A stretch of DNA of 64,000 nt, from the NCBI GenBank assembly GCA_964559215.1, contig CAZLFZ010000003.1, forward strand, positions 18,779 through 82,778, given 5' to 3'. This document shows, one piece after another, positions 26,084 to 52,549 of this stretch. This DNA comes from an uncultured archaeon. Its GTDB lineage: Archaea > Aenigmatarchaeota > Aenigmatarchaeia > QMZP01 > JAFGSV01. Within the stretch, counting starts at the first letter, position 1, and each line of letters starts with the position of its first letter. A program made the position numbers and the translations under genes. The notes under the pieces are model-generated. The model saw only the letters and a program-made list of their open reading frames with translations, made no database searches and was not told the origin of the DNA.

Positions 26084-26854
26084 CTATTGTTTGTCAAAAA
26101 GGCTCTGCGCCTGGACATCTATCCCTTTGTTGGTAATCGTGAAATTGTAATACCCTTCGGTGAACGCAGAGCCACGTATCTTTTGTATGCTCAATCCCCT
26201 ATATGCTTTCCCCTCGCTATGCACATAGTCTAATTGTATGACCCCGTCAGCAATGAATTTCAACTGTTGCCAGTAGCCTGTTTCCGCCTCAACGGTAACC
26301 AGGGCGGTGACACCCAATTTTGCTATGTGTTTAAAGAAGGTCATGGCTCCCATCCTCGCCAGCGACTCAGAATCTGCCATCAAACTGATCGCGGTCAGGG
26401 GGTCTATGACCAAGCGTCGTGCACCAATTTCATTGACCGCCTCCTTGATAAGTTCAATGAGCGTATTGGTCGAAAGAAAATGGACACTTTTTTGGGCTTG
26501 TGACGTTGAACTAGTATATGCCGATAAAGCATTCTCAATATCACTAGAGACCGCCCTTATGTAAGGGATCACGCGGACCAAGTTTTCCCTTTCCAGTTTC
26601 TCTAGATCCCAGCCAAAGGATTTGATATTGCTTAACATCTTTGGCTTATCTTCTTCCAGATTGACGAGGACGCCCGGCTCCTTGAACTTGGCTGCACCAT
26701 TATAGATGAACTCCAACCCAAATATAGTCTTCCCTGTTCCGCAACCGCCAGTAATCACATAGATTTTCTTTTCTGGCAACCCTCCGTTTAAGAGTTCATC
26801 TAACCCTGCTATCCCGGTTTTGACCCGTTTCGGACCTGGTCTTTTTTCGCCCAT
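26084..26854 (-). CDS. single-domain KaiC-like ATPase
   Basis: GIAGLDELLNGGLP, Walker A GGCGTGKTIF, ..LVIDPLTA..; 256 aa. Confidence 0.9.
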   Translation of the reverse strand: MGEKRPGPKRVKTGIAGLDELLNGGLPEKKIYVITGGCGTGKTIFGLEFIYNGAAKFKEPGVLVNLEEDKPKMLSNIKSFGWDLEKLERENLVRVIPYIRAVSSDIENALSAYTSSTSQAQKSVHFLSTNTLIELIKEAVNEIGARRLVIDPLTAISLMADSESLARMGAMTFFKHIAKLGVTALVTVEAETGYWQQLKFIADGVIQLDYVHSEGKAYRGLSIQKIRGSAFTEGYYNFTITNKGIDVQAQSLFDKQ

Positions 26855-26861
26855 TTTCCCT

Positions 26862-27410
26862 TCACCTACCCTTTTCCTTACCCGTAAATATAATTTTATC
26901 AGAAAACATGCCCAAGTTTTTTATGAAATCTTCGTGCGCATCTTCTTCGAGACAGATAAAAATGCACCCCTTCTCAGATATTCTAAGCTTCGATACCAGC
27001 AAGTGCGTGAACTTGATGGCACTTGCCTGACTCCCATAGACCAAAAGGGTGGACAAGGAATCAAACAAGATGCAATCCACGTGCATGAGCAATGCCTTGG
27101 TAACCGTTATGCTCAATTCGGTGAGCGCATCAGGAGAAGATACAAATAACACCTGCCCTTCTTTCTGTTTTTCATCTACCCCCTTTACACAATCTATAAA
27201 AAGTATCTTCTTCGTATCGATTCCTCCCCCTTTAAATTCCTTTGTCAAGGTCGTGTACGGCTTGTTAAGAGACAAGTAACATATCATATTATGAATCTTT
27301 GTAGCAGCGCCAACAATCTCCTCTAGGGCGGTTCTATAGTTTTTGCTGGGAACAACAAAAACAACGACTTGATTTTCCTTCATCTCCATCTCTAGGTTTA
27401 TTTTCAGCAT
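26862..27410 (-). CDS. Walker-A-less KaiC/RecA-fold small protein (MEDS-like), 182 aa; operon partner of the KaiC at 26084-26854 (7-nt gap)
   Basis: Aligns along the KaiC core, but the P-loop is replaced (VVVFVVPSKNYRTALEEI). Conserved FIDCV ... ILFDSLSTLLVY ... FICLEED shared with three paralogs in the window. Confidence 0.75.
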   Translation of the reverse strand: MLKINLEMEMKENQVVVFVVPSKNYRTALEEIVGAATKIHNMICYLSLNKPYTTLTKEFKGGGIDTKKILFIDCVKGVDEKQKEGQVLFVSSPDALTELSITVTKALLMHVDCILFDSLSTLLVYGSQASAIKFTHLLVSKLRISEKGCIFICLEEDAHEDFIKNLGMFSDKIIFTGKEKGR

Positions 27411-27540
27411 CGTTACCTCGCGCTTCTACAGATCACGATTCGTGTTATGTTTTTCGTATTTTATTTTTATATGCTCTGCTTAATTAAGTTTTGGTAAGAA
27501 GCCTCATATTTATTAACGAAGAGAATACTTAAGATTTAAT

Positions 27541-28089
27541 ATGAAAAGTTTGGAAAGTTTAAACAAAATCCTTGAAAATGTGCTGAAAAAGAGGGCAATA
27601 ATTCTGCTCTCGTTTCTAAGCAAGGAATACAGAACTGGGATGACGAATCTAATAGCCTTTGCGACACACACGTTCAATAAGACCTGCTACGTCACGCTTA
27701 ATGATCCCTACGAAAGTATAGCCAGCAGGCTGGATGAGGAGCAGAAGTCCAAGCTGTTCTTCATAGACTGCATGACGGCTACGATCAAAACACCGGAGAC
27801 AAAAGAAAATGTGGTTTTCGTGTCGTCACCCCACGCTTTGACGGAGATGAGCATAGCATTAAAAAAAGTCATGGAAAAGGAAAAAATTGATTTTGTCATA
27901 TTTGATTCAATTTCAGCTTTGCTGGTTTATGAACAACCCTTATCGGTCCTGAAATTCGTTCATAGCCTAATCCTGATGTCCAGGGAAGCGAATCTGGGTA
28001 ACTCTTTTGTAATCCTGAAGGAGGATGTCAGCGAGCAATTGATGAAAGACCTGGCCATGTTTGTTGACAAAATTGTGGAGGTGGTATGA
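27541..28089 (+). CDS. Walker-A-less KaiC/RecA-fold small protein (MEDS-like), 182 aa
   Basis: Paralog of 26862-27410 (FFIDCMTA .. VIFDSISALLVYEQ .. VILKEDV). The stop TGA at 28087-89 is immediately followed by the GTG start of the PAS protein. Confidence 0.75.
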   Translation: MKSLESLNKILENVLKKRAIILLSFLSKEYRTGMTNLIAFATHTFNKTCYVTLNDPYESIASRLDEEQKSKLFFIDCMTATIKTPETKENVVFVSSPHALTEMSIALKKVMEKEKIDFVIFDSISALLVYEQPLSVLKFVHSLILMSREANLGNSFVILKEDVSEQLMKDLAMFVDKIVEVV

Positions 28090-34363: not shown

Positions 34364-34732
34364 TTACTCCAGCGCTTTCTTTACCCTTTTGACGAGGTCC
34401 TGGTTGTCAAAAGGTTTCGTGATGTAATCCAGAACATCCATCTTTTCCAGAACATCCTTCCCCGCCTCTGAGAATTTTGCCACAGTGAGGAATGCGATTT
34501 TCAAGTCCTTTGTTTCAGGGTCCTTCCTTATACTTTCACAGACTTCCCTTCCACTCATCCCTGGCATCATCATATCAAGCAAGATGAGATCGGGTTTCAC
34601 CGTTTTCAGTTTTTCCAGGCATTCCTTTCCGCTCATGGCCGGGATTACTTCGTAGTTCTCTTGTTCCATAAGCGCCTTAACAAGCTCGACCAAACTTTCC
34701 TCATCATCCACGATCATTATTTTTTTTGCCAT
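34364..34732 (-). CDS. single-domain response regulator (CheY-like receiver)
   Basis: IMIVDDEE ... DLILLDMMMPGMSG ... KIAFLTVAK; 122 aa. Confidence 0.9.
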   Translation of the reverse strand: MAKKIMIVDDEESLVELVKALMEQENYEVIPAMSGKECLEKLKTVKPDLILLDMMMPGMSGREVCESIRKDPETKDLKIAFLTVAKFSEAGKDVLEKMDVLDYITKPFDNQDLVKRVKKALE

Positions 34733-34871: not shown

Positions 34872-35444
34872 CTAATCCGGCTTCTCTGTCATGTCAACAG
34901 TAGTGTCAGCAAACATACACAAGTCTTTTATCATACCCTGATTTTCTCCACCTGGCAAACCACTTCCTTTAAGGACGATGTAGATTTTCTTGGTTTTTTC
35001 CTGCATCTTGTCAGTCATTATTTCGTGCGTGAACCTAACGATGGAATAGCTCTCCTGGTATATCAGCAGGGACGAGATGGTATCAAATATTATCACGCTG
35101 CATTTTTTCTCCATGATGACCTTTTCTATCGCCAGTCTTATCGAAACCAGTTCTGGTGGTGCTTCCAAAAAGATGCAGTTTTTAACGGGTTTTGGCTTAA
35201 AGTAATGCGAGCTAAGGATATCTATGAAGAAGAAGTTTTTGTCATTGACGCCTATTCTCTTTAAATCCTCAATAACATCCTTGTAGGGTTTTGACAGGCA
35301 GACATAGCATATTTTTGTTTTGGTTTCCCCTATGTTTTTTACTATATCTTTCAATTTCATTTCATACTGCTTCTCTTCAAGCAGCAGCATCAGAAACCTT
35401 GACTTGGTTATTTCTTGCAGCAAATTCATACCATCCTGCTCCAT
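34872..35444 (-). CDS. Walker-A-less KaiC/RecA-fold small protein (MEDS-like), 190 aa
   Basis: Paralog of 26862-27410 and 27541-28089 (FFFIDILS .. IIFDTISSLLIYQE .. IYIVLKGS). Confidence 0.75.
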   Translation of the reverse strand: MEQDGMNLLQEITKSRFLMLLLEEKQYEMKLKDIVKNIGETKTKICYVCLSKPYKDVIEDLKRIGVNDKNFFFIDILSSHYFKPKPVKNCIFLEAPPELVSIRLAIEKVIMEKKCSVIIFDTISSLLIYQESYSIVRFTHEIMTDKMQEKTKKIYIVLKGSGLPGGENQGMIKDLCMFADTTVDMTEKPD

Positions 35445-35543
35445 CTTTATTATGTGATATATTTTTATTTAAAAGAGCTTCTATTTAAAATAAGTTTAAA
35501 CATATAATAAAAATATTTAACTAATTATAACAATTATTAAAAC

Positions 35544-36665
35544 ATGACTCGATTCTCTGATATCAAGATTCACGATACCACCCTCAGAGACGGCGAACAG
35601 ATGCCTGGTGTTGTCTTTGATTTTAACGAAAAAATCAAGCTTGCTGAAAAAATAATGCAATTTGACGCGGATTTGATTGACATAATGCCCGTGGTTTCCG
35701 ATTCAGAGTTCAGGGTCACAAAAGAACTCACGGATATGTTTGGTGATAAGGTTTCTGCTACATGCAGAATCAAAAAATCGGATGTAGATATAGCCATGGA
35801 TGCGGGTGCCGAAAGGGTCACACTGTTCACACCGCTTTCTGATTTGCACATAACCCACAAACTGCGGATAAGCAGAGAGGAAAATCTCAAAAAGACGTCT
35901 GAAATGGTTGATTATGCAAGAGCCCACGGACTGATCGTGGATTTCGCAGGGGAAGACACGAGCAGGGCCGACTTCAATTATTTTAAGCGATTTTTAAAAG
36001 AAATCCACAACAGGATATCCGTATTCTTCATAGCCGATACTGTCGGCTGTCTTACCCCCAAATCTACAAGAAACTTGGTCTCTTACCTTAAAAAGAATCT
36101 CAACTGTCAGGTCGGAATCCACACGCACAACGATTTCGGCATGGCAACCGCAAACGCCGTGGAGGGCGTGCTTGCGGGGGCTGATTATTTTTCAGGAACC
36201 TTTACGGGGATTGGAGAAAGGGCTGGAAACGCAGCAATCGAAGAGGTCTGCATCGCATTGAAGCACTTGCATGGAAGGGACCTTAAAGTGAAGTCCGAAA
36301 TGCTGCTGGAAATATGTGACATGGTCCAGGAATTCTCAGGTGTGAAGATTCAGCGACACAAACCTGTTATAGGGGAAAATGCCTTTGCCCACGAATCAGG
36401 GATTCACGTAGATGGGGTTCTTAAAGATCCGAGAACTTATGAGTTTTTTGAACCGGAATCGGTAGGGCAGAAAAGAAAGATTTGCATGGGCAAGCATAGC
36501 GGGAGGAGTATTCTGAAGCACATGTTCGGTGGGGGAATCCTTCAGGATTCCAGCGTTGCCATCAAGGAGATAAAAGCCATCTATGAGGCCAAGGATGTTC
36601 CTTTCTCACGCAAAGATGCTGCTATCAAGTTGTCATGGGTGAAGAAGCGTCTGGTGACTGTATGA
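35544..36665 (+). CDS. HMGL-like DRE-TIM metallolyase: short-form 2-isopropylmalate/homocitrate/citramalate synthase family
   Basis: IHDTTLRDGEQMPG, HTHNDFGMATANAVEGV, GIGERAGNAAIEEV. 373 aa, lacking the LeuA C-terminal regulatory domain. Confidence 0.85.
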   Translation: MTRFSDIKIHDTTLRDGEQMPGVVFDFNEKIKLAEKIMQFDADLIDIMPVVSDSEFRVTKELTDMFGDKVSATCRIKKSDVDIAMDAGAERVTLFTPLSDLHITHKLRISREENLKKTSEMVDYARAHGLIVDFAGEDTSRADFNYFKRFLKEIHNRISVFFIADTVGCLTPKSTRNLVSYLKKNLNCQVGIHTHNDFGMATANAVEGVLAGADYFSGTFTGIGERAGNAAIEEVCIALKHLHGRDLKVKSEMLLEICDMVQEFSGVKIQRHKPVIGENAFAHESGIHVDGVLKDPRTYEFFEPESVGQKRKICMGKHSGRSILKHMFGGGILQDSSVAIKEIKAIYEAKDVPFSRKDAAIKLSWVKKRLVTV

Positions 36666-37474
36666 AGGGTAAGGCTGTTTGGCTCGTCTACAGGAAGCTG
36701 AGGCCGGCATTCGGGATATCTTTCGCCTTCATACTCCTGTCGGGAGTGTTCTTGGGAGTCATGAATTTCAAGGTCATCATGGCTGCACTGGGGTTCCTTT
36801 TCATAGAGCTTTTCGCGGCTTTCTACAACGACTACTGGGATTTTTCCGATGACATAAAGAACGAGAGAAAGGACAAATTCACGACCCTTGGCCTCATGAG
36901 CACGAGGTCGTGCCTGTACCTGTCCCTCATCCTGGCATGCCTGTCCTTGATCTTCCTTATGTTCACAGACACATCTTTCCTGATGATTGGTATACCGTAC
37001 CTAGCGCTTGGGTTCCTCTATTCCCACAAGAGGGTCAGGCTGAAGGGGACGATCACCGGTTATGCTATCCTCTCATCCCCCTTCTTTATCCTCCCGCTAC
37101 TCATCGCGGGTGCAAATGGCATTCCGCTGACGAGAGCCATGCCCATATCCACCTTCCTCTTCTTCCAGTACATGTACATACTCTGCCAAAAGGATTCGAC
37201 AGACATGAGGGACAAGAAGAATGTCTTCATGGTCTATGGCTGGAAGAGAACGAGTATGTCTGTAACCCTTTTCAGTATCTCGGCTTCTATTTCGTTGTTC
37301 ATCATTTCTTTATCGTTTCCCCCATTGATGCTGATATGGTTATTCAATACGGCACTGAAGTCACTCAACATAAAAGACATAGCAAAGGGCACCGTAACGA
37401 GAGGAAGGCGGGGCAGAATCATTCTGCTCGACTATACCACAGAATACCTTTATATCTTAGGTGGATTACTGTGA
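36662..37474 (+). CDS. UbiA-family prenyltransferase (ATGA overlap with the upstream stop)
   Basis: NDYWDFSDDIKNERKD (NDxxDxxxD motif); about 8 TM helices. Start moved to the ATG at 36662 (MKGKAVWLVYRKL) overlapping the TGA at 36663-65. Confidence 0.8.
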   Translation: MKGKAVWLVYRKLRPAFGISFAFILLSGVFLGVMNFKVIMAALGFLFIELFAAFYNDYWDFSDDIKNERKDKFTTLGLMSTRSCLYLSLILACLSLIFLMFTDTSFLMIGIPYLALGFLYSHKRVRLKGTITGYAILSSPFFILPLLIAGANGIPLTRAMPISTFLFFQYMYILCQKDSTDMRDKKNVFMVYGWKRTSMSVTLFSISASISLFIISLSFPPLMLIWLFNTALKSLNIKDIAKGTVTRGRRGRIILLDYTTEYLYILGGLL

Positions 37475-38235
37475 TTAACGAAATGCTGGATTTCATCAGA
37501 TTCAGGATATGCCTCACTATCTTTTTCACCTCCGCATCCGGATACCTTTTGTTCAATCCGGTGGGCTTGAATTTGCTCATTGCTGCCTTGAGCTCTTTTT
37601 TTGTTTTCTCGGGAGGATATGCATACAATAACATATTTGACAGGAAGGAGGACATCATAAACAGAGGGAGAATAAACCCTTTCGTCAAAAGCGGGAAGAG
37701 CTACCCCATAGTGTTTCTTTGCTTCGCCGCTGGGTTCCTGCTTTCCCTGCTTTTGCCCCCACATTCCATTCCTTTCTTCATTCTGATGTTAGGAGCAAAC
37801 ATTTTCTATTCGTTACTCAGAATCAAAAGATACACCCTTTTGAAAAATTTGTACACAGGTTTCGGCATATCACTAGCCTTCCTCTTCGGTGCCATAACGG
37901 GTTTTGAGCTCAACGTTGAGGTCATGGCATATTATTTTCTGATGTCGCTCCTGATTTTCATTGGAAGTGTGATCTCGGACCTGAGGGACTACGATGGCGA
38001 TGAAAAGGCAGGCATAAATACGATTCCCGTGACCTTTGGTTTCCACAAGACAAAAAATATGGTATACATACTCCTTGCACTGCTTTCCTTCCTGGTCGTA
38101 TTCTTCCACAGGGTTATTGTCCTGCTTCCATTCGTGTTCGCAACATTCATTTATCTATATAAAAACAAGATCTCATTTGCACACTCGTTCGGAGGGCTCT
38201 CCTTGATAGCTTTGAGCATATGGTTATTGCTGTAA
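37471..38235 (+). CDS. second UbiA-family prenyltransferase (GTGA overlap; alternative ATG at 37483)
   Basis: YNNIFDRKEDIINRGRINP and DLRDYDGDEKAGINTIP Asp-rich motifs; polytopic membrane protein. The track ORF 36910-38235 has an unrealistically early start in this frame. Confidence 0.8.
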   Translation: MINEMLDFIRFRICLTIFFTSASGYLLFNPVGLNLLIAALSSFFVFSGGYAYNNIFDRKEDIINRGRINPFVKSGKSYPIVFLCFAAGFLLSLLLPPHSIPFFILMLGANIFYSLLRIKRYTLLKNLYTGFGISLAFLFGAITGFELNVEVMAYYFLMSLLIFIGSVISDLRDYDGDEKAGINTIPVTFGFHKTKNMVYILLALLSFLVVFFHRVIVLLPFVFATFIYLYKNKISFAHSFGGLSLIALSIWLLL

Positions 38236-38278: not shown

Positions 38279-39289
38279 CTACCGTGAGAAGACTATCTCG
38301 AGGTTCCTGTACGACTCCTTTACGTTCGATATTTTCAGTTTGTTGTCTATTAACCACAGATACCCCAAGATAACATTTATCAGGAAAGTCCAATCATCCT
38401 TTTCCCTTTGCAATCCGTAAGGTGGGTTGTAAATACTGAATGTTATCTTGCTGCTCAGCTTTATTTTTATGGTCCCCCAACCAGTAGAGTGTAGAACGTT
38501 TTTCAGCAAATTCAGCTTTTTGTCATCTGTCGTATCCTTATCTACTATCTCTCTGAAAAATTCATGTGAAAGGAAAGGGACACTATCCAACAGGACACTC
38601 TCGGCTGAAAAGAGATGAAAAAGAGTGTTTTCTATAGGAATGAGGGATTTCCCTCGGAAATACATCCTGTTGTTTTGTTTCAACTGAATGATTCCGGCCT
38701 TAAGAGCCTTTTTGAGGGTAACCCCACCCCCACTCTTAAATTGGTTCAATCTTATGTAAAGGTCCTTGTCTTTGGATTCCATGTCTTCGAAAGGACTTTC
38801 CCCCAACGAAAATACATAAGTGCATTTCTCCTTTTTTTGAGCGGCTTCAATACGCTTGAATTCCAAGTTGAAATAAAGCCTCAGAAAAGCGCCCCACCCA
38901 CCTACTGAGAACCTGTTTTTACCTATAACCCTCGTGATGTACTCATTTCTCGTTTCTATTTTGATGTTATTCTCTTTCTTTTCCACTTTGAGATTATCCA
39001 TCAGCCCTATGTTCGTCCAGATCTTTTTCCCGATCTGATTAAATAAGAAACCCAAGGGCAATTTATTGAAAGTATGAGGAAGGAAGCACTTCGCTGTCAG
39101 ATACATCCATTTGTTACCGACCCTTTCAGTCATCTCTTCTTGACCAGCCTTTTCACATTCCAATATGTATTTGGCTAAGATGTCCTCGAAGAACAGAATA
39201 TCTCTCCTGCTTTTCACCTTGAACTTGTTTATAATACCCCCGACTACGGTCTCCATAATACCCCTTCTCAAAGATTCCGACAGCCTCAT
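38279..39289 (-). CDS. hypothetical protein, possibly V4R (4-vinyl-reductase-like) domain containing
   Basis: C-terminal ..STGWGTIKIKLSSKITFSIYNPPYG...FLINVILGYL resembles the V4R pattern G.G.l.......i.f.v.n......C.f..G.l.G; weak. Confidence 0.55.
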   Translation of the reverse strand: MRLSESLRRGIMETVVGGIINKFKVKSRRDILFFEDILAKYILECEKAGQEEMTERVGNKWMYLTAKCFLPHTFNKLPLGFLFNQIGKKIWTNIGLMDNLKVEKKENNIKIETRNEYITRVIGKNRFSVGGWGAFLRLYFNLEFKRIEAAQKKEKCTYVFSLGESPFEDMESKDKDLYIRLNQFKSGGGVTLKKALKAGIIQLKQNNRMYFRGKSLIPIENTLFHLFSAESVLLDSVPFLSHEFFREIVDKDTTDDKKLNLLKNVLHSTGWGTIKIKLSSKITFSIYNPPYGLQREKDDWTFLINVILGYLWLIDNKLKISNVKESYRNLEIVFSR

Positions 39290-39325: not shown

Positions 39326-40453
39326 GTGAATAGGTACTTTTTCAGCAAGGCTGTAGAAAAAATCCAGTTCTCCAAGGCGACTGGTTATTTTGGAAAGGTT
39401 CACAGAGATATTGTGGATTTTTCCTTAGGAGAACCAAAAGACAGGCCTCCAGATTCAGTGATAAGAACATACGTGGAATCCTTGCAAGACGGGAGTAACA
39501 GATACGCCCCTGTTCAGGGATTAACAGAACTGAGGGAAAAGGTTGCGGAAAAGCTCAAAGAGCAAAATAAAATCGATGCAAATCCCGAAGAGATTTTTAT
39601 AAGTGTTGGGGCCACCGAGGGTATAGCTTTCTCAATCATGTCTTTGATAAACAAATCTGATGAAGTGATAATAATGGAACCGAGCTATCCCATAATAGCC
39701 CCTATGGTAAGTTTCTGTGGAGGAAAACCCATCAGCCTTTTCCTAAAAGATGAAAACAGCTTTTGCCCGGACCTTGAAAAACTAAAGGAAATGGTCAACA
39801 ATCGCACGAAAATGGTGGTGCTAAACACACCTCATAACCCGACAGGTTATGTGTTTGATAAAAAATATCTAAAAGCGATATCCGAGATATTCGGGGGGCT
39901 GATACTTATGGACGAGGTTTACGAGAATTTCGTTTATGGAGCGGAACACCGTTCGCTAGCTTCCCTTGCGGATATACCTGAAAACATCATTACAGCCAAC
40001 TCGTTCTCAAAGACCTATTGCATGTGTGGCTACAGGGTTGGCTATCTGCACGCAAGAAAGGATATAATAAAGCAGTTACTAAAGCTTAAACTTTGCATAT
40101 CGACCTGTACCAGCAACCCTGCCCAGCGGGCTGCCATAGCCGCACTGGAAGATAAGGATTTCCCTAAAATGATAAGGAAAAAGTTCGAGCTAAGGAGAAA
40201 CCTGATGGTGAGGGGACTCAAAGCACTCAAGATGCCGCTAGTTGAGCCAAAGGGCGCATTTTACGTCTTCCCTGATATAACAGAATTCGGCAGCGATGAG
40301 GAGGCTTTCGATCTTTTCCTAAAAGCAGGTGTTCTAACAATGCCAGGAAGCGTGTTCCACAGCAACTGTAACAAATATGTGAGATTCAGCTTTGTCAGCG
40401 ACGTGAACGAAATCATGAATGGGATCGAAAGGCTTGAAGGTGTTTTGGCATAG
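39326..40453 (+). CDS. class I/II pyridoxal-phosphate aminotransferase (aspartate-aminotransferase family)
   Basis: NTPHNPTG, SFSKTYCMCGYRVGY (PLP-Lys), ..GAFYVFPD..; 375 aa. Confidence 0.85.
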   Translation: MNRYFFSKAVEKIQFSKATGYFGKVHRDIVDFSLGEPKDRPPDSVIRTYVESLQDGSNRYAPVQGLTELREKVAEKLKEQNKIDANPEEIFISVGATEGIAFSIMSLINKSDEVIIMEPSYPIIAPMVSFCGGKPISLFLKDENSFCPDLEKLKEMVNNRTKMVVLNTPHNPTGYVFDKKYLKAISEIFGGLILMDEVYENFVYGAEHRSLASLADIPENIITANSFSKTYCMCGYRVGYLHARKDIIKQLLKLKLCISTCTSNPAQRAAIAALEDKDFPKMIRKKFELRRNLMVRGLKALKMPLVEPKGAFYVFPDITEFGSDEEAFDLFLKAGVLTMPGSVFHSNCNKYVRFSFVSDVNEIMNGIERLEGVLA

Positions 40454-40622: not shown

Positions 40623-41297
40623 CTAGATGACCTTGGTTTCTGTAAGTCTTATGTATTTGTTATCTATTAAAAGCTCGTGGGGCAGCTTGGCATCGAAATT
40701 TGTGTATCTCATCTTATGCACTACCAAGGCCCGCATGGGCTTCTCCTCGAGCTCCAGGAATATCAACTGCATCACGCCATCACATTCAAATGATTCATGA
40801 CCGCTTGAATCCAACTTTTCATCAGAGTCTGTTTCGCACAAAAGCAGCGAGGATTTTGCGTTTTTCAGGCTGTTGATAAGCTCTATGAAGTAGGCCCTGT
40901 AAGATTTCTTGCTCTCAGAGAACATCAGCAGCTTGTTGACATTATCTATCACTATTCTGTCTATTTTTGGGTAGCTCGAGATAATGTCTATAAACCTCTT
41001 CATGGACAAATTGCTCTGAGCCATTGGTATGTATTCTATGGCCAGGTTTTTCCCCATGTATTTTTTCACACTGTTCAGGGATTTTACGGACTCGCATGCC
41101 TTGATTAACTCCTCTTTGTTTTCATTTAGCGTTATGTAACAACATTTCTCACCTTTTTTGGAACCCTCTAGCATAAATTTTAGACCCAGCAGCGTTTTTC
41201 CAGTTCCCGGACCTCCGGAAAGCAAAATGACCGACTTTTCTGGGAACCCTCCGGCTAGCATGCTGTCCAGTTTTTTCAGGCCTGTTGTGACTCTCAT
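40623..41297 (-). CDS. single-domain KaiC-like ATPase (start at internal ATG with GAGGAGGA SD; track ORF extends to a TTG at 41327)
   Basis: GLKKLDSMLAGGFP, Walker A GGPGTGKTLL, ..IVIDNVNK.. Confidence 0.85.
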   Translation of the reverse strand: MRVTTGLKKLDSMLAGGFPEKSVILLSGGPGTGKTLLGLKFMLEGSKKGEKCCYITLNENKEELIKACESVKSLNSVKKYMGKNLAIEYIPMAQSNLSMKRFIDIISSYPKIDRIVIDNVNKLLMFSESKKSYRAYFIELINSLKNAKSSLLLCETDSDEKLDSSGHESFECDGVMQLIFLELEEKPMRALVVHKMRYTNFDAKLPHELLIDNKYIRLTETKVI

Positions 41298-41298
41298 A

Positions 41299-41628
41299 TC
41301 AATCCTCCTCAAATTTTGGTATACCAAGCCTGGAGCTTTTTATTTTTATCAGCAGGAATGCGTCACCGTCCAAGGCAAAGATGTTTGATGGCACTTTCTT
41401 TTCCATCATTTCAATGCCGAATTTTCCCAGTATCTTTTTTGGCAACATTATCCTGTTGCTGTTGCCTAATTTCCCTGTTGTGAGGCTGTAAGTGAGCGAG
41501 TCTTTCCCGCAAGGCAGGAGAAGAATGTCAGTCACGTGATCTTTCAGAATTTTATATTCAGCCATGTTGATGGAAAGCTTTATTTCAATCCCACCGTCAT
41601 GCATATTAATGCCTTTTATCTCGGCCAT
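41299..41628 (-). CDS. small protein with C-terminal AbrB/SpoVT/MazE-like swapped-hairpin motif, immediately upstream of the KaiC gene
   Basis: ..GNSNRIMLPKKILGKFGIEMMEKKVPSNIFALDGDAFLLIKI resembles the AbrB-N consensus (GRivIPkeiRkkLgi..gd.v.i...d..i.L.k). Its stop lies 1 nt before the KaiC ATG. Confidence 0.55.
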   Translation of the reverse strand: MAEIKGINMHDGGIEIKLSINMAEYKILKDHVTDILLLPCGKDSLTYSLTTGKLGNSNRIMLPKKILGKFGIEMMEKKVPSNIFALDGDAFLLIKIKSSRLGIPKFEED

Positions 41629-41727: not shown

Positions 41728-42585
41728 ATGCTAAAAACAATAAAGGGGGGGGAGGTGCAGGAATTAAAACCCGAAAACGAAAGGGCGCCAGCACAGAAAA
41801 AAAGGACCGCTAATAAAAAAAAGGTACCAGAAGCGAAACTTCAGCAAAAAACAGATCAGCACGAGTTCATAAAAACAGGCATACCGGGCCTCGACGCCCT
41901 CTTTGAACACGGGATACCAAAAAAATCTAGCGTGCTTATTGCTGGCGGTGCCGGTTCCGGCAAGACCCTGCTCTGCTTGCAGATTATGGTCAATGCTGCC
42001 AAGGCCGGCAAGAAATGCATGTACATGTCCTTTGAGGAGTCCGCCGCCAGGCTGAAAAACCACATGGAAGAATTTGGCTGGATTTTAGGGAAATATGAAA
42101 AGAACGTTGTTATAGAGAGGTTCAACCTGTTCGACATTACCAGAGTCATAGATGCGCTGCTTGCGAAGCAATCAGGGGATTTGCTTATAGATGTTAAGCC
42201 TGTCCTATTCCCGGAAAATTTCAAGCCGGATATTATAGTTATTGATTCTCTGACAGCCATAGCTTCCGCTTTTAGCAAAAGAGAAGAAACCTACCGGATA
42301 TATATAGAACAGCTTTTCAATTATTTCGAAGAGTTGGGGGTTAGTACATTCCTTATATCAGAGACTGAGCAGGAGCCTAGAATATTCAGTCCAACGGGGG
42401 TAGAAGAGTTCCTCGCTGATGGGGTCATTATTCTTTACAGCATAAGAAAAGCAAATGTCAGGGAAAATGGACTTGAAGTACTCAAGATGCGGGGCGCGAA
42501 GCACAAGAAAAAAATCGTGGCCATGCAGATACTTGATAAGATAGGCATAGAGGTTTATCCGGAGCAGGAAGTTTTCGGCGTGTGA
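41728..42585 (+). CDS. single-domain KaiC-like ATPase with Lys-rich N-terminal extension
   Basis: GIPGLDALFEHGIP, Walker A GGAGSGKTLL, ..IVIDSLTA.., C-terminal ..LEVLKMRGAKHKK. Confidence 0.9.
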   Translation: MLKTIKGGEVQELKPENERAPAQKKRTANKKKVPEAKLQQKTDQHEFIKTGIPGLDALFEHGIPKKSSVLIAGGAGSGKTLLCLQIMVNAAKAGKKCMYMSFEESAARLKNHMEEFGWILGKYEKNVVIERFNLFDITRVIDALLAKQSGDLLIDVKPVLFPENFKPDIIVIDSLTAIASAFSKREETYRIYIEQLFNYFEELGVSTFLISETEQEPRIFSPTGVEEFLADGVIILYSIRKANVRENGLEVLKMRGAKHKKKIVAMQILDKIGIEVYPEQEVFGV

Positions 42586-42998: not shown

Positions 42999-45900
42999 TT
43001 ACTTTGGGGATCGGTTTGGCTTTATGCGTTTTAGTTGAGGTTTTTTAACTTTAGCCTTGCGTGGTTCACGCCTTTCCTTTTTCACTTTTTCAGGGACTGG
43101 TTTTTCAGCCCGGGGCAACCTGTATTCGCGGTGTTCTTTCTTGAGTATCTTGACTTTTTCAGCTTCCAGCCTCTCCATCGTCCTGCCAAGTTCTTTTTTG
43201 TATTTTTTCATCCGGGTTTCATAGTCTTTTTTGCCCAAGCTTTTCTTGTTGAAATAACCTTCCTGCAAGGTCTTCATCGAGTTTTTTATGTTGTCGACCT
43301 CATTCTCCAAGCTTTTCATCATGCGGGCTTTTTTCACTTTTTTCAGCTTTACGAAAGCAGGAACAGACGCTAAAACAAGCAAAACAACGCAGGCAGATAT
43401 AATCAGCCTGTGTGCATAAATCATTTTACCAAATACATCAACGAGATTCTCTCTTGCAGCCATGGAAAGTGCGGCCTCCCTTTCAATAGAGTCCAACCTG
43501 TCCATCGCCTGGGTCAGCAATGTCTCTGCCTTTTCATAATTTTCTTTAGCAAATTCGTCTACTCCATTGCGGAACAAATTCCTAGACTCAGAGACATCGT
43601 GACCCTCGGAAGAAAGCTCATGCATTCTCAGCTCCACATCGTCTATCATTTCGTCAACTACGATTGCTTTCTGTTTTATCACAAAAACGTACCTTGCTGT
43701 GGTCAAAGCAAGGTCGTACTTCCCGCGTAAAAGCAGCACCTTGGCTTCTCCCAGCGTGTGATTGGCATATTCTGTTCCAAAGCCAAGAGCTTTCATTTCG
43801 TCTATAACTGTTTCGGCCTGAGTCATGGCAGCCGTAGCATCCTCTTCCGTCACGTTTTCCAGGGCTTCCAAAACAGAGGGGAAGACCGCCACACAAGCCA
43901 ACAAAACCAAAAACCAAATCACACCCTTAGATCGTTTTGGTTTTTTAAGCTTGCTTAAATCTCTTTCTATTTCTGCAAGCTCCCCCTGCAGCTCTTTGAT
44001 GGTTTCTTTGTACTCGCTCTTGCTTATTTTTCCAAATTCGAAATAGTCACGTTGCAGGTCTTTCATCCTCTTTCCCACCTCATTCTTCTCCCTGTTAAGG
44101 CTTTCTCTCCTGTCTCTGCCTTTCATCATTGCGATTTTTGTGGCGAGTTTTAGCTCGAGTGAGCCTAGTTTGGCAAGCCTTTTTTCGTAATTCCGTTTCC
44201 TCATGTCATAATCAAGCATTGATATTTTTTTCCTGTTGAAATAATCATCCTGCAAGTCATGTATGAGCTTTTTCAGACTCCTTTTATCCCCCCTTATACT
44301 TTCCAGTTTCATTTCCATTGACCTTATTTTCAACCTTCCTCTGAGAAAAATGGATATTATCGCTGCCGATAAGAGCAAAGTAACAATTGCGTACCAGTAT
44401 TTGTAGAGGAACTTGATCAAGGGCAAGATATATTTGGTCTCAAGCTGGTATGCATTTATCGCTGCCTGGATCCTTTCCTCAGCCCTTTCATAGTCGCCCC
44501 TGTCGAAGGCGGATTTCGCCAAGTCCTGCATCTTTTTTGCTCCCTCAACTCTTACACCGTATCTGGCGGCATCTGCTATCATGTTTGCAGACTGTTTAAT
44601 GAGATCAAATACAATAAAGGCCTTTTCCTTGAGTTCGATTATTTCATTTGCTATTTCCTTGGCTTTGTCGAAATTCAAGCCAGAATAAGCCTTTCTAGCA
44701 TCTTGCAGCATTGAGGCCAGGACAGAAACGCTGAAGTTCATGCCTTTCATGTCTTCCAATGCGATTTCGGCACTCTTTATAGAGCTGAAGCTCACGTTTT
44801 CGACTACACCATGAACCGAAAATACAATCTTGCCAGAACTCAGTAAAGAGCTGTTACCGGCAGCGTAATAGCCAATCGCTGAAAGGGAGATGTCCACTAT
44901 ATAGTCCCTTCCTTCGATATAGGTTGGTGCACTGATTTCCAGGTAAAAGGTTTTGGTTTGATTAGGAGCAATGTACTTAATTGTGCTCGGTATTTTTTTA
45001 ATCAGGGTTTCAGGATAACCGCTTATTTCAAGATTGACTTGTGTGAGGTTTGTGTTTTCTACAGTATTCGTTACTTCTATGGTGAAGTTGTAGAAACCGC
45101 CTTTTAGGAGATCAATCCTATCAGGCATCGCGACATCCATTCTCGGTTCTTTTATGATAACCTCACCAATGCCTACGTATTCAGTCACCCCCCTCCCAAC
45201 GCTTGGTCCTTCGCAGTCAATGTCTGTGAAATAGTTGCAACCCGCTCCACAGACACCATCCGAATTCGAGCAACTAACCTGTACGATATCACAGTCAGAG
45301 CTGCTCAGGTTCCCTTTACCACTGGCATTCACGCATACACTTGATATCCCGCTTAAAGCTGATGAACTTACTGCCACAACCAGATCGCTTGTGTTTGTTG
45401 ACTTGGAAGTGATATTACCAATGTACAGGTTCACGTTTCCGCTGGTGTTTGTCCAACCAACTGGAAGCGTCCAGTTAAACCAGACATCTTCAGCAGTTTC
45501 ATTGCCAATGTTTTTAACAGTGGCACTCAAGTTTACACCTGTTGTGCTCTGCGTCACTGAAACAGGACACGTAACAATGTTTAGATGAGGATAAGGCCCG
45601 CCGCTATAGGAATTCATGGTCACGGTGGTATTCAATGCACTTGGTGTCGCGGTTTTTTCAGGGGCAGAGGGCTCAGCGGACATCGTTATTGTCATATTCT
45701 TTACGCTGTCAGAACTTGCATATTCGGCAGTGACGTTGATGCCTATTACGCTTTTCCCATCTATTGCGAATTGTTCCGTTGTGTTATAGTAAACATCTAG
45801 CAAAGGCCGCCAGTCGTCCGTTAGGGTGATTATGAGAGTGTCGTCTCCGGTATTGTTTACGGTTATAATCCCTACGTTGCTTATACTATTCACAAGCCCG

Positions 45901-47267
45901 TATGCATCAATAGAGGAAGGGTTTCTATTCCATGAGTAATCCCAGGTGACATTCACGCTGTCGTTTTGACAGGTGTTGGCGCGTCCTAGGGTGTCATTTG
46001 ACCATATCCTGTAATAATATAGCCTTTCAGAGGATATGGTGGTAAAAGACGCATTCCATAAATTGGTGCCTATTTTGCTCATAGTCAAGTTGATCCAGTC
46101 TACATCGTATTTGTATTGAAATATCGCACCGCTTACATTGCTGGGGTCTGTTATTTCGGCGGTGACATTTATCGTTACACTGGGGTCAATATCGGCAGCG
46201 GAACTTGGGGACATGTTGATGTAATTTACAACAGGACCGGAGAAGACATCTACACTGAAGGTATAGTTGTCGATGTACCATGATTTCTGGGACTCGTTGT
46301 CATAAACCAAACAATTCCAGGTATAAGTCCCGTCAGGGATGCCGGTCAAAGTCCAGTTTGCAGATTTATTTCTGTAATCACCAAAGGCTTTCATGTAAGA
46401 AGCGTTTATCTCGTCTGGGCTTTTTGGTATGTTGGATATTCTGAGTTCATCAAAAGTGGAATACGCTTGATAGTACTTGTTTGAATCACTTCCAAGATAC
46501 ATGTCATTTCCAAATGGAGCGTAAGAATAGAATCCACCAGAGTATATGACAGAATCATTGGAGCCGTCCAGGAAAAGATCCAGTATTCTCCCGCTGCCGA
46601 CCAAGTTATACACATCCCATATGCCTGCCACATGGTGCCATTCTCCAGGATTCCAGGTGCTTATATCCCTGTACGCGGTTGTTTGAGAAGCGTAGTCATC
46701 GTTATAGTAAAAATACAGTGTTCCATAATCAGCGTATAATTGAATTTCGTCCGTGCCTGTTTTACCCGTTGAGAAAAGCCAAGCCGTATCAGAATAAGGA
46801 TCGAAACCGACCTTTAACCAGAATTCGACAGTGCCCTGAGCGGAGTTTATGTTATTTGAAGTTTGATATTTCAAGGAATCCGATTCATCATTTATCATGA
46901 CCCCTTGCATGAACTTGCCGGTCACGAAGCCGGTGGAATCGTTCACACCCACCTCCCCGTCCTCACATGTATAGTCGCCATTAAAATGGCAAAGAAGCAT
47001 GGTGTCTGAATCGGGATCAAACTCCATTGTCCGCTTTGTGCCATGGAAATCAAAGGTGCCGTTTATATCATGGTAAAAAGAGAAACTGAGCACATTTTCG
47101 TCATCCGTTCCGTTGCAAATAAAGGTTAGGTTATTTGTAGAGGTAGAAACATTCCCATCAACCGGTGAAACCAGGGTAACATTGGGATAATTGGAAGCTG
47201 CAACGCTAGGTAAAAATGGGAATAGAAGTAGTATTAGAACTAAGATGGAGAGATATCCGTTAGCCAT
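42999..47267 (-). CDS. giant cell-surface glycoprotein (1422 aa): signal peptide, LamG/ConA-like domain, Ig/CARDB-like domains, then 3 TM helices alternating with helical ecto-domains and cytoplasmic (L/M)xxLQxDYF coiled-coil repeats
   Basis: Signal MANGYLSILVLILLLFPFLPSVAAS; LamG-like ..GTVEFWLKVGFDP..AWLFSTG..LDLFLDGSND..; many NxS/T; C-terminal motifs LQDDYFNRKKIS, LQRDYFEFGKIS, LQEGYFNKKSLG and a basic tail. Confidence 0.85.
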   Translation of the reverse strand: MANGYLSILVLILLLFPFLPSVAASNYPNVTLVSPVDGNVSTSTNNLTFICNGTDDENVLSFSFYHDINGTFDFHGTKRTMEFDPDSDTMLLCHFNGDYTCEDGEVGVNDSTGFVTGKFMQGVMINDESDSLKYQTSNNINSAQGTVEFWLKVGFDPYSDTAWLFSTGKTGTDEIQLYADYGTLYFYYNDDYASQTTAYRDISTWNPGEWHHVAGIWDVYNLVGSGRILDLFLDGSNDSVIYSGGFYSYAPFGNDMYLGSDSNKYYQAYSTFDELRISNIPKSPDEINASYMKAFGDYRNKSANWTLTGIPDGTYTWNCLVYDNESQKSWYIDNYTFSVDVFSGPVVNYINMSPSSAADIDPSVTINVTAEITDPSNVSGAIFQYKYDVDWINLTMSKIGTNLWNASFTTISSERLYYYRIWSNDTLGRANTCQNDSVNVTWDYSWNRNPSSIDAYGLVNSISNVGIITVNNTGDDTLIITLTDDWRPLLDVYYNTTEQFAIDGKSVIGINVTAEYASSDSVKNMTITMSAEPSAPEKTATPSALNTTVTMNSYSGGPYPHLNIVTCPVSVTQSTTGVNLSATVKNIGNETAEDVWFNWTLPVGWTNTSGNVNLYIGNITSKSTNTSDLVVAVSSSALSGISSVCVNASGKGNLSSSDCDIVQVSCSNSDGVCGAGCNYFTDIDCEGPSVGRGVTEYVGIGEVIIKEPRMDVAMPDRIDLLKGGFYNFTIEVTNTVENTNLTQVNLEISGYPETLIKKIPSTIKYIAPNQTKTFYLEISAPTYIEGRDYIVDISLSAIGYYAAGNSSLLSSGKIVFSVHGVVENVSFSSIKSAEIALEDMKGMNFSVSVLASMLQDARKAYSGLNFDKAKEIANEIIELKEKAFIVFDLIKQSANMIADAARYGVRVEGAKKMQDLAKSAFDRGDYERAEERIQAAINAYQLETKYILPLIKFLYKYWYAIVTLLLSAAIISIFLRGRLKIRSMEMKLESIRGDKRSLKKLIHDLQDDYFNRKKISMLDYDMRKRNYEKRLAKLGSLELKLATKIAMMKGRDRRESLNREKNEVGKRMKDLQRDYFEFGKISKSEYKETIKELQGELAEIERDLSKLKKPKRSKGVIWFLVLLACVAVFPSVLEALENVTEEDATAAMTQAETVIDEMKALGFGTEYANHTLGEAKVLLLRGKYDLALTTARYVFVIKQKAIVVDEMIDDVELRMHELSSEGHDVSESRNLFRNGVDEFAKENYEKAETLLTQAMDRLDSIEREAALSMAARENLVDVFGKMIYAHRLIISACVVLLVLASVPAFVKLKKVKKARMMKSLENEVDNIKNSMKTLQEGYFNKKSLGKKDYETRMKKYKKELGRTMERLEAEKVKILKKEHREYRLPRAEKPVPEKVKKERREPRKAKVKKPQLKRIKPNRSPK

Positions 47268-47429: not shown

Positions 47430-48881
47430 TCACTCCACCAAGAATTCATACAAATTTATCATGCTGCGCTTTATATGAACCCTCGGGTCGCGCTTAAAGC
47501 TGGAAACCAGCTTAAGTTTCAGCCCTTCGCATTTTTCATCCCCTGCTACGGAGAGAACTGTTTTATTCACCGAGAGAAATTCTTTTATCACTTCACAACC
47601 AGTTGTTGTGCTGGACACTTTCGTCAGGTTTACCTGGTAATAGGTAAAGTACTTATAGGCAAAACCGCTTAAAACGATAATGCTGTCTGGGCCGTAATTA
47701 GAATTAACGTAAGAAATGAGCTGAACTGGGGGAGCTGGTTTGGTGCTAATCTCAAATGCCAGAAAGAGGGAGTGGGTCAAAACAAGCACGATGAGAAAGC
47801 CAAACAACGCATATCTTTGAGTTGCCCTTTTCAAACTCCAGATGGCTTTTGTGAAAATCAAGGAAAGCAGGGGAACGAGGATTATAAGATACCTGGGATT
47901 GAAAGGAGGAAGGAGCATGAAAATCAGGAGCAAGTAAATAAAAATCCCTGAGGCAAAAAAGAGCGCCCTCTTGCCCCTTAGATTAATGTTTTTAAGACAA
48001 AAAATTGCCAGGACGGCCATTAAAAACAAAAGGATGATGCTGAATATCCCAAGACCGGCCAAGTTGATTCCATAGCCGCCCAGCAAAAAATAATAAAAGA
48101 AACCGAACAATTTCAAGGCTAGGATGTTCGAACTGTAATCAGTGCCAAGGAGTGAAATATCAGGTTTGCCGACCCTGAAACCAAACTGGTTTGATGCAGA
48201 AGAGACATACTCAGAAATGCCTGTTATCAATAACAAGGGCAGCAACCACGCCAAAATAGCGAGAAAAAAGAGGAGAAAACCCTTAAACCTAATTCGGGCG
48301 TCTTTTTTGTGCGATAAAGACACGTAAACAAGGACAGGCAACAGTATAAAAAATGTGTGAATTCTCACCCCCGTTGAGATTCCTGCCAGGAAGGCCCCAA
48401 GGTAAAAATGGCCAGGTTTCTCATACTTGACGTACTTGTAAATTAAAAGCATCGAAGCGAGTGTAAAAAAGAGCCCGGTGATATCAGACATCGCCTTTAC
48501 GCTGTTAAGCCAAAAAAGAGGCGTAAAAGCCATCAAAACGGATGAGGCCAAGGCTATTTCCATGTTGAGCATATCCTTGACCAGTAAATAGAAGACAAAA
48601 ACGGACAATGTGCCGAACAAGGCGCTCATAAATGTGAGGCTTAGCACCTCGTTTTTGAAGAATGTGTTAAAGAACATGCCCAATGCCATGTATACAGGAA
48701 ATCCGGGAGGGTGAGGCTGATACTTTGTCACATTGAACTCTTTAAGTCCCAAGGCGAAATGGACAGCATCTTCTTCATCCAAGGATACGCTAAGAGTTGA
48801 AATATAAATCAAAAAAATCAGTATGGAAAAAAGAACCGCAATCCTATCCAAGTCATTTTTTTTCAACATGCTTCTCCTCAT
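47430..48881 (-). CDS. GT-C fold polyprenyl-phosphate-sugar-dependent glycosyltransferase (PMT/ArnT GT39/GT83-like; N-terminal loop motif resembles the DUF2723/TMEM260 type)
   Basis: About 12 TM helices; first extracytoplasmic loop DEEDAVHFALGL..YQPHPPGFPVY; large C-terminal soluble domain. Confidence 0.8.
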   Translation of the reverse strand: MRRSMLKKNDLDRIAVLFSILIFLIYISTLSVSLDEEDAVHFALGLKEFNVTKYQPHPPGFPVYMALGMFFNTFFKNEVLSLTFMSALFGTLSVFVFYLLVKDMLNMEIALASSVLMAFTPLFWLNSVKAMSDITGLFFTLASMLLIYKYVKYEKPGHFYLGAFLAGISTGVRIHTFFILLPVLVYVSLSHKKDARIRFKGFLLFFLAILAWLLPLLLITGISEYVSSASNQFGFRVGKPDISLLGTDYSSNILALKLFGFFYYFLLGGYGINLAGLGIFSIILLFLMAVLAIFCLKNINLRGKRALFFASGIFIYLLLIFMLLPPFNPRYLIILVPLLSLIFTKAIWSLKRATQRYALFGFLIVLVLTHSLFLAFEISTKPAPPVQLISYVNSNYGPDSIIVLSGFAYKYFTYYQVNLTKVSSTTTGCEVIKEFLSVNKTVLSVAGDEKCEGLKLKLVSSFKRDPRVHIKRSMINLYEFLVE

Positions 48882-51503: not shown

Positions 51504-51660
51504 TTTAATTTCATATTAAATTGTCGACCGACATTTGACATTGAGATTTGGTTTTCATGGAACTGTTTTTGAACCCATGTGAATCCATGTTTAATGTGTA
51601 TTATCCCATAACATTTCGGGACACCCCACAGTTTTTAATGCAGGAATCATAATGCAGAAA

Positions 51661-52545: not shown

Positions 52546-52549
52546 ATTT

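Follow-up and report, generated by a model that had tools for sequence, protein, structure and literature searches.

A possible isoprenoid-conjugation pathway encoded by a coupled synthase-UbiA operon in DPANN archaea

A 64,000-nucleotide stretch of contig CAZLFZ010000003.1 from an uncultured archaeon of the Aenigmatarchaeota (assembly GCA_964559215.1, positions 18,779 to 82,778; henceforth termed the window) encodes, in one coupled operon, a condensing synthase of the HMGL-like family and two prenyltransferases of the UbiA superfamily, here named UbiA1 and UbiA2. The synthase and the UbiA proteins are probably linked functionally in an isoprenoid pathway. More specifically, and more tentatively, the operon may encode a conserved isoprenoid-conjugation pathway in which the synthase would join acetyl-CoA to a 2-oxo acid that is bulky or aromatic, yielding a product for prenylation by the UbiA enzymes. 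The original prediction, an earlier note on this DNA, had proposed a prenylated small-molecule or lipid pathway; this is still the most reasonable reading, and isoprenoid genes found beside the operon in relatives strengthen it.

DPANN archaea are commonly regarded as metabolically minimal and, in many cases, as dependent on the lipids of their hosts. A coupled synthase-prenyltransferase operon that has been kept over deep divergence in this group implies an important product. The individual parts belong to known superfamilies, but their combination is without a characterized counterpart in the literature that we found.

The operon and its conservation in relatives

The three genes lie on the forward strand, with the synthase at 35544-36665 (373 amino acids, aa), UbiA1 at 36662-37474 (270 aa) and UbiA2 at 37471-38235 (254 aa). 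They had been described as overlapping by ATGA and GTGA. Read directly from the DNA, the first junction consists of ATG 36662-64 lying over TGA 36663-65 and the second of GTG 37471-73 lying over TGA 37472-74, the latter being likely rather than certain. Other gene callers start UbiA1 at ATG 36635 (279 aa) and UbiA2 at ATG 37483 (250 aa). Alignments of homologues prefer 36662 for UbiA1, and a GGTGG box 7 nt 5' of GTG 37471 favors that codon for UbiA2; were ATG 37483 used instead, the second overlap would become a gap of only 8 nt. Both internal starts are preceded at 4-7 nt by such a box (GGTGA and GGTGG), and reading of the sequence reveals no Shine-Dalgarno box before the synthase ATG at 35544. 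A first gene lacking the box, followed by boxed internal starts, would correspond to the usual archaeal operon layout. The AT-rich, 99 bp intergenic region at 35445-35543, which separates the synthase (+) from the divergent gene u190 (-), is likely to be the operon promoter. The claim that the three genes form one coupled operon is thus borne out.

Conservation was assessed by mapping the window proteins onto fetched loci that represent 20 distinct genotypes, with synthase identities of 42-69%. A UbiA gene stands directly 3' of the synthase in 18 of the 20, and the synthase/UbiA junction overlaps by 4 or 8 nt in 9 of the 17 loci in which it was measured, using heuristically chosen start sites. 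Because adjacency and overlap recur at these frequencies, we regard the arrangement as beyond chance. One of the two exceptions, L024, carries its UbiA gene two genes upstream on the other strand; the second, L031, is considered below.

The genes that accompany the synthase vary among loci. Homologues of both UbiA1 and UbiA2 occur in the window and in L011, L013, L017-L021 and L026, and many relatives contain a single UbiA. UbiA2 is paired with a PF04240/CruF-like protein in L005 and L008, and L021 combines both UbiA genes with a CruF-like gene; the CruF model gives 41 bits, far below its cutoff of 155. In L015, L016, L022 and L023, UbiA1 is joined by a class I methyltransferase with weak similarity to UbiE/MenG/UbiG, in L025 UbiA2 is joined by a radical SAM/SPASM protein, and L026 has an added cis-prenyltransferase. 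UbiA2 is missing from these four methyltransferase loci and from L033, where only UbiA1 is present. The divergently arranged L024 encodes a type 1 isopentenyl diphosphate (IPP) isomerase directly 3' of the synthase (150 bits, cutoff 127), together with a flavoprotein resembling geranylgeranyl reductase (GGR) and lycopene cyclase. The variable partners all concern isoprenoid supply or tailoring, which ties the synthase functionally to prenyl chemistry.

The operon had been placed, speculatively, in a Methanosarcinales context, an assumption that proved wrong because the labeled relatives of the synthase and of UbiA1 are DPANN. Where labels are given, the 120 best relatives of the synthase (49-77% identity) belong to Aenigmarchaeota, Nanoarchaeota, Woesearchaeota and Altiarchaeales. 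UbiA1 has only 40 relatives among 5.8 billion proteins, the named ones being 'Candidatus Aenigmarchaeota'. A scan of GTDB with the UbiA1 alignment, covering one genome per GTDB species, returned nine loci (five from Aenigmatarchaeota, one from Altiarchaeota and three labeled 'uncultured archaeon'), all in metagenome-assembled DPANN genomes. The associated suggestion, in which the operon would serve a Methanosarcinales methanogen by making a methanophenazine-type or other respiratory isoprenoid cofactor, is largely refuted by this taxonomy, and we give it next to no weight. UbiA enzymes together with UbiE-like methyltransferases are typical of quinone-type cofactor pathways, and the synthase pocket described below would admit an aromatic head group. 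The lineage, however, is DPANN, methanogenesis and respiratory genes are absent from among the genes of the window, and a literature search disclosed no link between such a gene triad and methanophenazine.

The synthase and its substrate pocket

The synthase combines the HMGL-like Pfam domain (1.3e-62) with HCS_D2 (1.1e-19) and, as noted from the sequence at the outset, contains the HTHNDFG motif and no LeuA regulatory domain (Pfam; 373 aa). It has the defining features of the Claisen-condensing family that comprises isopropylmalate synthase (IPMS), homocitrate synthase (HCS) and citramalate synthase (CMS), namely an HMGL-like TIM barrel, HCS_D2, metal ligands (D, HxH) and a catalytic R/E/H set. 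Residues R15, D16, E18, H193, H195, N196, E224, R225 and H283 are conserved across the clade of close relatives; since both catalytic and metal-binding residues are kept, the synthase is very likely an active enzyme.

Assignment to a characterized subtype failed with every curated model. The best NCBIfam model is the broad archaeal TIGR02090, against which the synthase scores 368 bits at a cutoff of 484.75. Scores against NifV (332, cutoff 463), LysS (279, cutoff 414), bacterial LeuA (267, cutoff 599) and two CimA models (188, cutoff 450; 153, cutoff 950) also fall below the respective thresholds. The clade representative P0101 likewise lies under the TIGR02090 cutoff, and the neighboring P0271, which is not a clade member, passes it. 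The best match in the PDB is the HCS from Sulfolobus (6KTQ, 1.1e-62). An exhaustive search of 1.84 billion representatives retrieved 12,161 members of the family, among which the clade of the synthase shrinks to a handful of representatives, at 392 bits and then at 313-328 bits; beyond these lies a background at 40% identity. Additional NifV, LeuA and haloarchaeal reference sequences were drawn from a tblastn search of the synthase against plasmids.

The substrate pocket offers a finer distinction. In the IPMS/HCS family, five positions touch the side chain of the 2-oxo acid (PMC12961565, Table 1). The table lists H/R/T/S/H for HCS, L/E/S/N/E for IPMS, A/D/A/M/S for HphA, a cyanobacterial 2-benzylmalate synthase, and A/N/A/F/S for hHphA; HphA homologues vary at three of these positions and are invariant at the remaining two, Ala and Ser (PMC12961565). 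By alignment, the corresponding residues of the synthase are T73, D133, A135, F162 and S217 (TDAFS). The mapping is valid, as the two controls, 6KTQ HCS (HRTSH) and Escherichia coli LeuA (LESNE), reproduce the published table. Across 120 clade members the pattern reads [T/S/A][D/N]A[F/L/Y]S, with T46/S46/A16 at position 73, D91/N12/S8 at 133, A110/G10 at 135, F76/L21/Y9/I8/M5 at 162 and S119 at 217. Only the nearest representatives keep an xxA[hydrophobic]S signature; the rest are of the LESNE type, the HRTSH type, the W.GRS (NifV) type or other types.

The synthase therefore has the fixed Ala and Ser of HphA, and, judged on these five positions, its pocket appears HphA-like rather than of the HCS or IPMS type. 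Where HCS grips the distal carboxylate with His, Arg and His, the synthase has Thr, Asp and Ser, and the Leu, Glu and Glu of IPMS are also absent. As acceptor, a 2-oxo acid with a bulky hydrophobic or aromatic side chain is most likely, phenylpyruvate and 4-hydroxyphenylpyruvate being examples; 2-oxoglutarate, oxaloacetate, pyruvate and 2-oxoisovalerate are all unlikely. The dicarboxylates are disfavored because position 133, a carboxylate-binding Arg in HCS, is Asp or Asn. Pyruvate is disfavored because residues 73 and 135 are small, and the pocket of CimA is one that we take to be small and closed by bulky residues. What had been a vague 'LeuA/NifV-like' label thereby becomes a testable substrate prediction, that of bulky or aromatic 2-oxo acids.

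These data bear on the view that the synthase is a housekeeping enzyme, an AksA/homocitrate, (R)-citramalate or Re-citrate synthase serving the synthesis of amino acids or 2-oxoglutarate. Such an assignment agrees with the source annotations, under which clade members (P0007, P0013, P0026, P0047 and others) are named '(R)-citramalate synthase CimA', 'homoaconitate hydratase' or 'methanogen homocitrate synthase', with TIGR02090 and NifV-type models scoring best, with an HCS as the closest structure and with an aminotransferase gene close by. It is nevertheless very unlikely: all curated cutoffs are missed, also by P0101, even though P0271 outside the clade passes, the selecting residues of both HCS and IPMS are replaced, and aconitase-type or dehydrogenase partners occur in none of about 20 loci. 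Re-citrate synthase was considered separately and is unlikely, since such an enzyme should bind the carboxylate through Arg or His, at a position where the pocket has Asp. Judging from the pocket residues and model scores, the public names of the clade are probably wrong. The statement that this is no standard leucine or coenzyme-B enzyme holds on both grounds, since the models stay below cutoff and the pocket is neither of the HCS nor of the IPMS type.

A different alternative moves the synthase to the isoprenoid-precursor side, where an HMGL-type enzyme might operate, for example, in a non-canonical route to a branched C5/C6 acid and so feed the prenyl donors used by the UbiA enzymes. The bona fide type 1 IPP isomerase adjoining the synthase in L024 would suit such a role, and the HMGL fold family includes 3-hydroxy-3-methylglutaryl-CoA (HMG-CoA) lyase. 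The synthase, however, is of the IPMS/HCS subtype with HCS_D2 and scores only 43 bits against the HMG-CoA lyase model (cutoff 246), its roomy pocket is unsuited to small substrates, and Aenigmarchaeota reportedly already possess AACT, HMGS, HMGR, MVK and IPK (PMC6107057). We give this route slightly less credit again than a housekeeping function.

The UbiA proteins and the proposed pathway

UbiA1 and UbiA2 both match the Pfam UbiA family (9.4e-15 and 55 bits, and 1.7e-26 and 93.5 bits, respectively; cutoff 34.2 bits) and share the hallmarks of the superfamily, a polytopic helical fold and two Asp-rich Mg/diphosphate motifs. They are different paralogues, as had been supposed, with 18% identity and an hhalign probability of 92.8%. 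The motifs first read from the sequence are present: NDYWDFSDD (NDxxDxxxD) in UbiA1, and YNNIFDRKED (NNxxDxxxD) and DLRDYDGD (DxxDxxxD) in UbiA2. UbiA1 contains in addition YSHKRVRLK and, as its second motif, the family-specific CQKDSTDxxD; N56, D57, D60, D64 and several basic residues are invariant in the family alignment. As the Mg2+/diphosphate motifs are kept, both proteins look catalytically competent.

The AlphaFold2 (AF2) model of UbiA1 (pLDDT 95.4) is all-helical and adopts the UbiA fold. Foldseek aligns it at a TM of about 0.7 with AfUbiA (4TQ3), digeranylgeranylglyceryl phosphate synthase (DGGGPS, 6M31) and ApUbiA (4OD5); as these three, UBIAD1 and a mycobacterial phosphoribosyltransferase match about equally, the fold does not tell the subfamilies apart. 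By profile, UbiA1 reaches only 1e-6 against DGGGPS, and pairwise comparison with DGGGPS finds no significant similarity. UbiA2 is closer to this enzyme. DGGGPS is characterized by the motifs N62/D66x3D70, Y125x5K and DxxDxxxD (PMC9385802), and UbiA2 has all three, as N53/D57xxxD61, Y113x5K119 and D170xxD173xxxD177. Methanocaldococcus DGGGPS (MjDGGGPS, 6M31) is its best PDB family by profile, matched over the full length at E 2.3e-21; pairwise BLASTP covers only 66 aa at 35% identity, and the best DGGGPS equivalog model gives 56 bits at a cutoff of 296. A tblastn search of UbiA2 against plasmids returned a single marginal match. Both UbiA proteins also show weak matches to chlorophyll synthase.

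The strongest alternative follows from this relationship: UbiA2, and perhaps UbiA1, could be the fast-evolving DGGGPS that the lineage uses to make archaeol, with the synthase co-transcribed but chemically unlinked. We consider this unlikely, yet a serious possibility. The profile match and the three motifs of UbiA2 argue for it. DGGGPS homologues have been reported from almost all archaea, most DPANN bins among them (PMC6431249), and mevalonate-pathway genes are present in Aenigmarchaeota (PMC6107057); the CruF-like, GGR-like, radical SAM and cis-prenyltransferase genes of the relatives would also suit tailoring of lipid tails. On the lipid genes of Aenigmarchaeota, the literature otherwise offered no more than general remarks. 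Against it stand the wide miss of the equivalog models and the short pairwise alignment, the absence of UbiA2 from five loci and the lack of significant pairwise similarity of UbiA1 to DGGGPS. Nor does it account for the conservation of the translational coupling with a synthase whose pocket is not of a housekeeping kind. That the UbiA proteins might be core-lipid DGGGP synthases had been named at the outset, together with a firm grouping of the synthase with leucine-biosynthesis LeuA, as the finding that would overturn the prediction; the part that stands is that DGGGPS is the nearest solved relative of UbiA2, while the pairwise and equivalog comparisons speak against the assignment.

A second lipid-related alternative would make the 2-substituted malate itself the backbone or head group of a lipid, to which each UbiA enzyme adds one isoprenoid chain; we regard this as quite unlikely. 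Held to be just as improbable is its extension to the linkages, an ether at the hydroxyl and/or a ChlG-like ester at the carboxylate, which would define a new class of membrane lipid. Chlorophyll synthase, which both UbiA proteins weakly match, esterifies a carboxylate. The pairing of two different UbiA enzymes, one of them DGGGPS-like, is in line with this idea, as are the invariant basic residues of UbiA1, which exceed what diphosphate binding needs, the lipid-type accessory genes and a neighboring protein, u336, that resembles the lipid-binding Bet3. However, many relatives have a single UbiA, the bulky side chain implied by the pocket would be odd for a backbone, and the reading is entirely inferential; we know of no prenyl lipid chemistry built on a malate backbone.

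Returning to the isoprenoid-conjugation pathway, its steps could be as follows. An aminotransferase would convert an amino acid into the 2-oxo acid, and the synthase, whose family and pocket are established from the alignments, would catalyze a metal-dependent Claisen condensation of acetyl-CoA with this bulky or aryl substrate to give a 2-substituted malate. Because LeuCD/LeuB-type genes occur in none of the loci, the malate is probably used as such. UbiA1 and/or UbiA2 would then use prenyl diphosphates to attach one or two isoprenoid chains to the product or a derivative, presumably yielding a membrane-resident amphiphile. In relatives, IPP isomerase, cis-prenyltransferase, UbiE-like methyltransferase, CruF-like hydratase, radical SAM protein and GGR-like flavoprotein may supply or tailor the isoprenoid part. 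More speculatively, u336 might bind the hydrophobic substrate or product and, with a KaiC-like ATPase and a small partner protein, sense it, regulate the pathway or hand the ligand over.

It is doubtful, although conceivable, that the outcome is a new compound class, a 2-(aryl/alkyl)malate bearing one or two isoprenoid chains. We hold to the same low degree that such a prenylated malate, made by an HphA-like synthase with UbiA enzymes devoted to it, would serve as a membrane lipid of a non-glycerol type or else as a lipidic antioxidant or signal, and would be sensed or handed over by a split set of V4R protein, KaiC-like ATPase and small DNA binder. If the product were a new prenylated acid or lipid, it would widen the acceptor chemistry of UbiA enzymes and might serve as a biomarker for Aenigmatarchaeota.

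Several observations weigh against isoprenoid conjugation. LeuB/LeuCD-like (HphB/HphCD-like) partners were seen, like the aconitase and dehydrogenase partners mentioned above, in none of about 20 loci, which speaks against a pathway shared with HphA, and the likeness of the synthase to HphA is based on five positions. L031 has no UbiA within 6 kb, although its locus retains the synthase along with u336, a cis-prenyltransferase and the KaiC-like gene. Neither UbiA protein groups with the prenyltransferases for 4-hydroxybenzoate, 1,4-dihydroxy-2-naphthoate or homogentisate, and the nearest characterized relative of UbiA2, DGGGPS, prenylates a lipid hydroxyl and not an aromatic ring. The neighboring aminotransferase is generic, its best NCBIfam model being archaeal aspartate aminotransferase (291 bits, cutoff 550). 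Finally, much of the surrounding synteny could reflect inherited gene order instead of functional linkage.

Flanking genes and comparison with known systems

Downstream of the operon, u336 (38279-39289, -; 336 aa) lacks any Pfam match and was assigned with AF2 and Foldseek as a tandem V4R/Bet3/H-NOX-like protein. The AF2 model (database homologues; pLDDT 91.9) shows tandem V4R/Bet3-type domains, and palmitoylated Bet3 is the best Foldseek match. Its gene lies beside the synthase in every locus for which the flank is available, including L024 (22% identity) and L031. Phenols, tetrapyrroles and acyl chains are among the small hydrophobic ligands that V4R/Bet3-type folds bind, so that u336 should be a binder rather than an enzyme. 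Speculatively, it is a candidate for sensing or carrying the substrate or product, and, being co-conserved, it would offer a way to identify the ligand.

A 36-bp spacer separates u336 from the divergent gene for the class I/II aminotransferase, a pyridoxal phosphate-dependent enzyme (39326-40453, +; Pfam Aminotran_1_2, 2.4e-62), which is found in the neighborhood of about 10 of 16 relatives and possibly supplies the 2-oxo acid. It is followed by a KaiC-like ATPase, Kai234 (40623-41327, -; Pfam KaiC, 4.2e-38), and its small partner u109 (41299-41628, -; 109 aa; identified by alignment). In relatives, the ATPase recurs at 50-82% identity next to the operon, in company with u336 and u109. u109 contains a faint AbrB/MazE-like motif, GNSNRIMLPKK, and has no match in the PDB; since PF04014 is detected in only 4 of 14 members (best E 0.0029), its candidacy as an AbrB-like DNA binder is no better than faint. 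On the other side of the operon, divergent from the synthase, u190 (34872-35444, -; weak match to Pfam KaiC, 0.0038) codes for a degenerate KaiC-like half-domain protein kept in most relatives; a single-domain CheY-like response regulator (34364-34732, -; Pfam Response_reg, 4e-27) is conserved upstream at 45-84% identity. As companions of the synthase, u336, the KaiC-like ATPase and u109 form a trio that is kept more strictly than the UbiA genes. In L031, two class I methyltransferases and an alpha/beta hydrolase (3467-5929) precede the synthase in the same orientation, and the cis-prenyltransferase lies 2 kb downstream.

Elsewhere, the window codes for histidine kinases, PAS proteins and glycosyltransferases; rRNA, tRNA and other Rfam families were not detected within its 64 kb. 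KaiC-like ATPases and degenerate half-domains (DUF7504/DUF7090) are unusually dense, with at least 7 copies, including those at 17313-18317, 18528-19780, 26084-28089, 34872-35444, 40623-41327 and 41728-42585; several have a response regulator, a PAS or HAMP kinase or a CBS domain as partner. Four giant surface-type open reading frames are located at 3-13736 (-; at least 4578 aa, running off the window start), 19813-25857 (-; 2014 aa), 42999-47267 (-; 1422 aa) and 57721-63999 (+; at least 2093 aa, running off the end). The first two share a near-identical N-terminal motif, [LV]x[HK]KKYIKRGxKxxGPYYYE(N/S)(Y/F)R, and in L016, L017, L022 and L023 a counterpart of the 1422-aa protein (38-61% identity) is syntenic with the operon. 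A sulfur group at 50010-53326, consisting of a sulfatase (497 aa), a PAPS-reductase-domain protein (294 aa) and a TauE/SafE sulfite exporter (258 aa), adjoins a dolichyl-phosphate-mannose-type glycosyltransferase (47430-48881) and a GT2 glycosyltransferase (49127-49810), and may be linked with these to sulfated surface glycans. A 600-aa protein at 14201-16003 (+) joins a PIN domain, a secretion-type/STAND-like P-loop ATPase and a KH domain.

Literature searches found no characterized system in which an IPMS/HCS-type synthase is coupled to UbiA enzymes, and nothing relevant for benzylmalate in combination with a prenyltransferase. Partial likenesses exist for each component. The trio of u336, KaiC-like ATPase and u109 resembles a split version of DmpR/XylR-type regulators, which unite a V4R sensor, an ATPase and a DNA binder; here, however, the parts are separate polypeptides, the ATPase is KaiC/RecA-like instead of an AAA+ ATPase of the sigma-54 type, and DNA binding by u109 is only faintly indicated, so that a regulatory role of this kind would be pure speculation. 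The pairing of a UbiA enzyme with a CruF-like protein in L005, L008 and L021 recalls LyeJ-CruF of haloarchaeal bacterioruberin synthesis, a UbiA-type lycopene elongase with a hydratase, but the window has no CruF-like gene and CrtB/CrtI were seen in none of the loci.

UbiA2 shares fold, length and three motifs with DGGGPS (MJ0279, 6M31), to which it is very distant, and differs from it in standing beside a condensing synthase rather than lipid genes and in being dispensable from the locus in several relatives. The synthase has the two-subdomain core and the metal-binding and catalytic residues of archaeal HCS/AksA/TIGR02090 enzymes such as Sulfolobus acidocaldarius HCS (6KTQ), from which it is set apart by the replaced 2-oxoglutarate-binding residues, the missing aconitase/dehydrogenase neighborhood and a score below the TIGR02090 cutoff. 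HphA, which acts in homophenylalanine/homotyrosine biosynthesis, offers a further parallel: both enzymes belong to the same fold family, neither has the LeuA-type regulatory domain, 6KTQ is the closest solved homologue of each, and four of the five selecting positions are identical or conservative, with Ala and Ser fixed and the same three variable in both. In contrast to HphA, the synthase has neither hphB/hphCD nor a nonribosomal peptide synthetase context, and it is coupled to UbiA enzymes in a DPANN instead of a cyanobacterial host.

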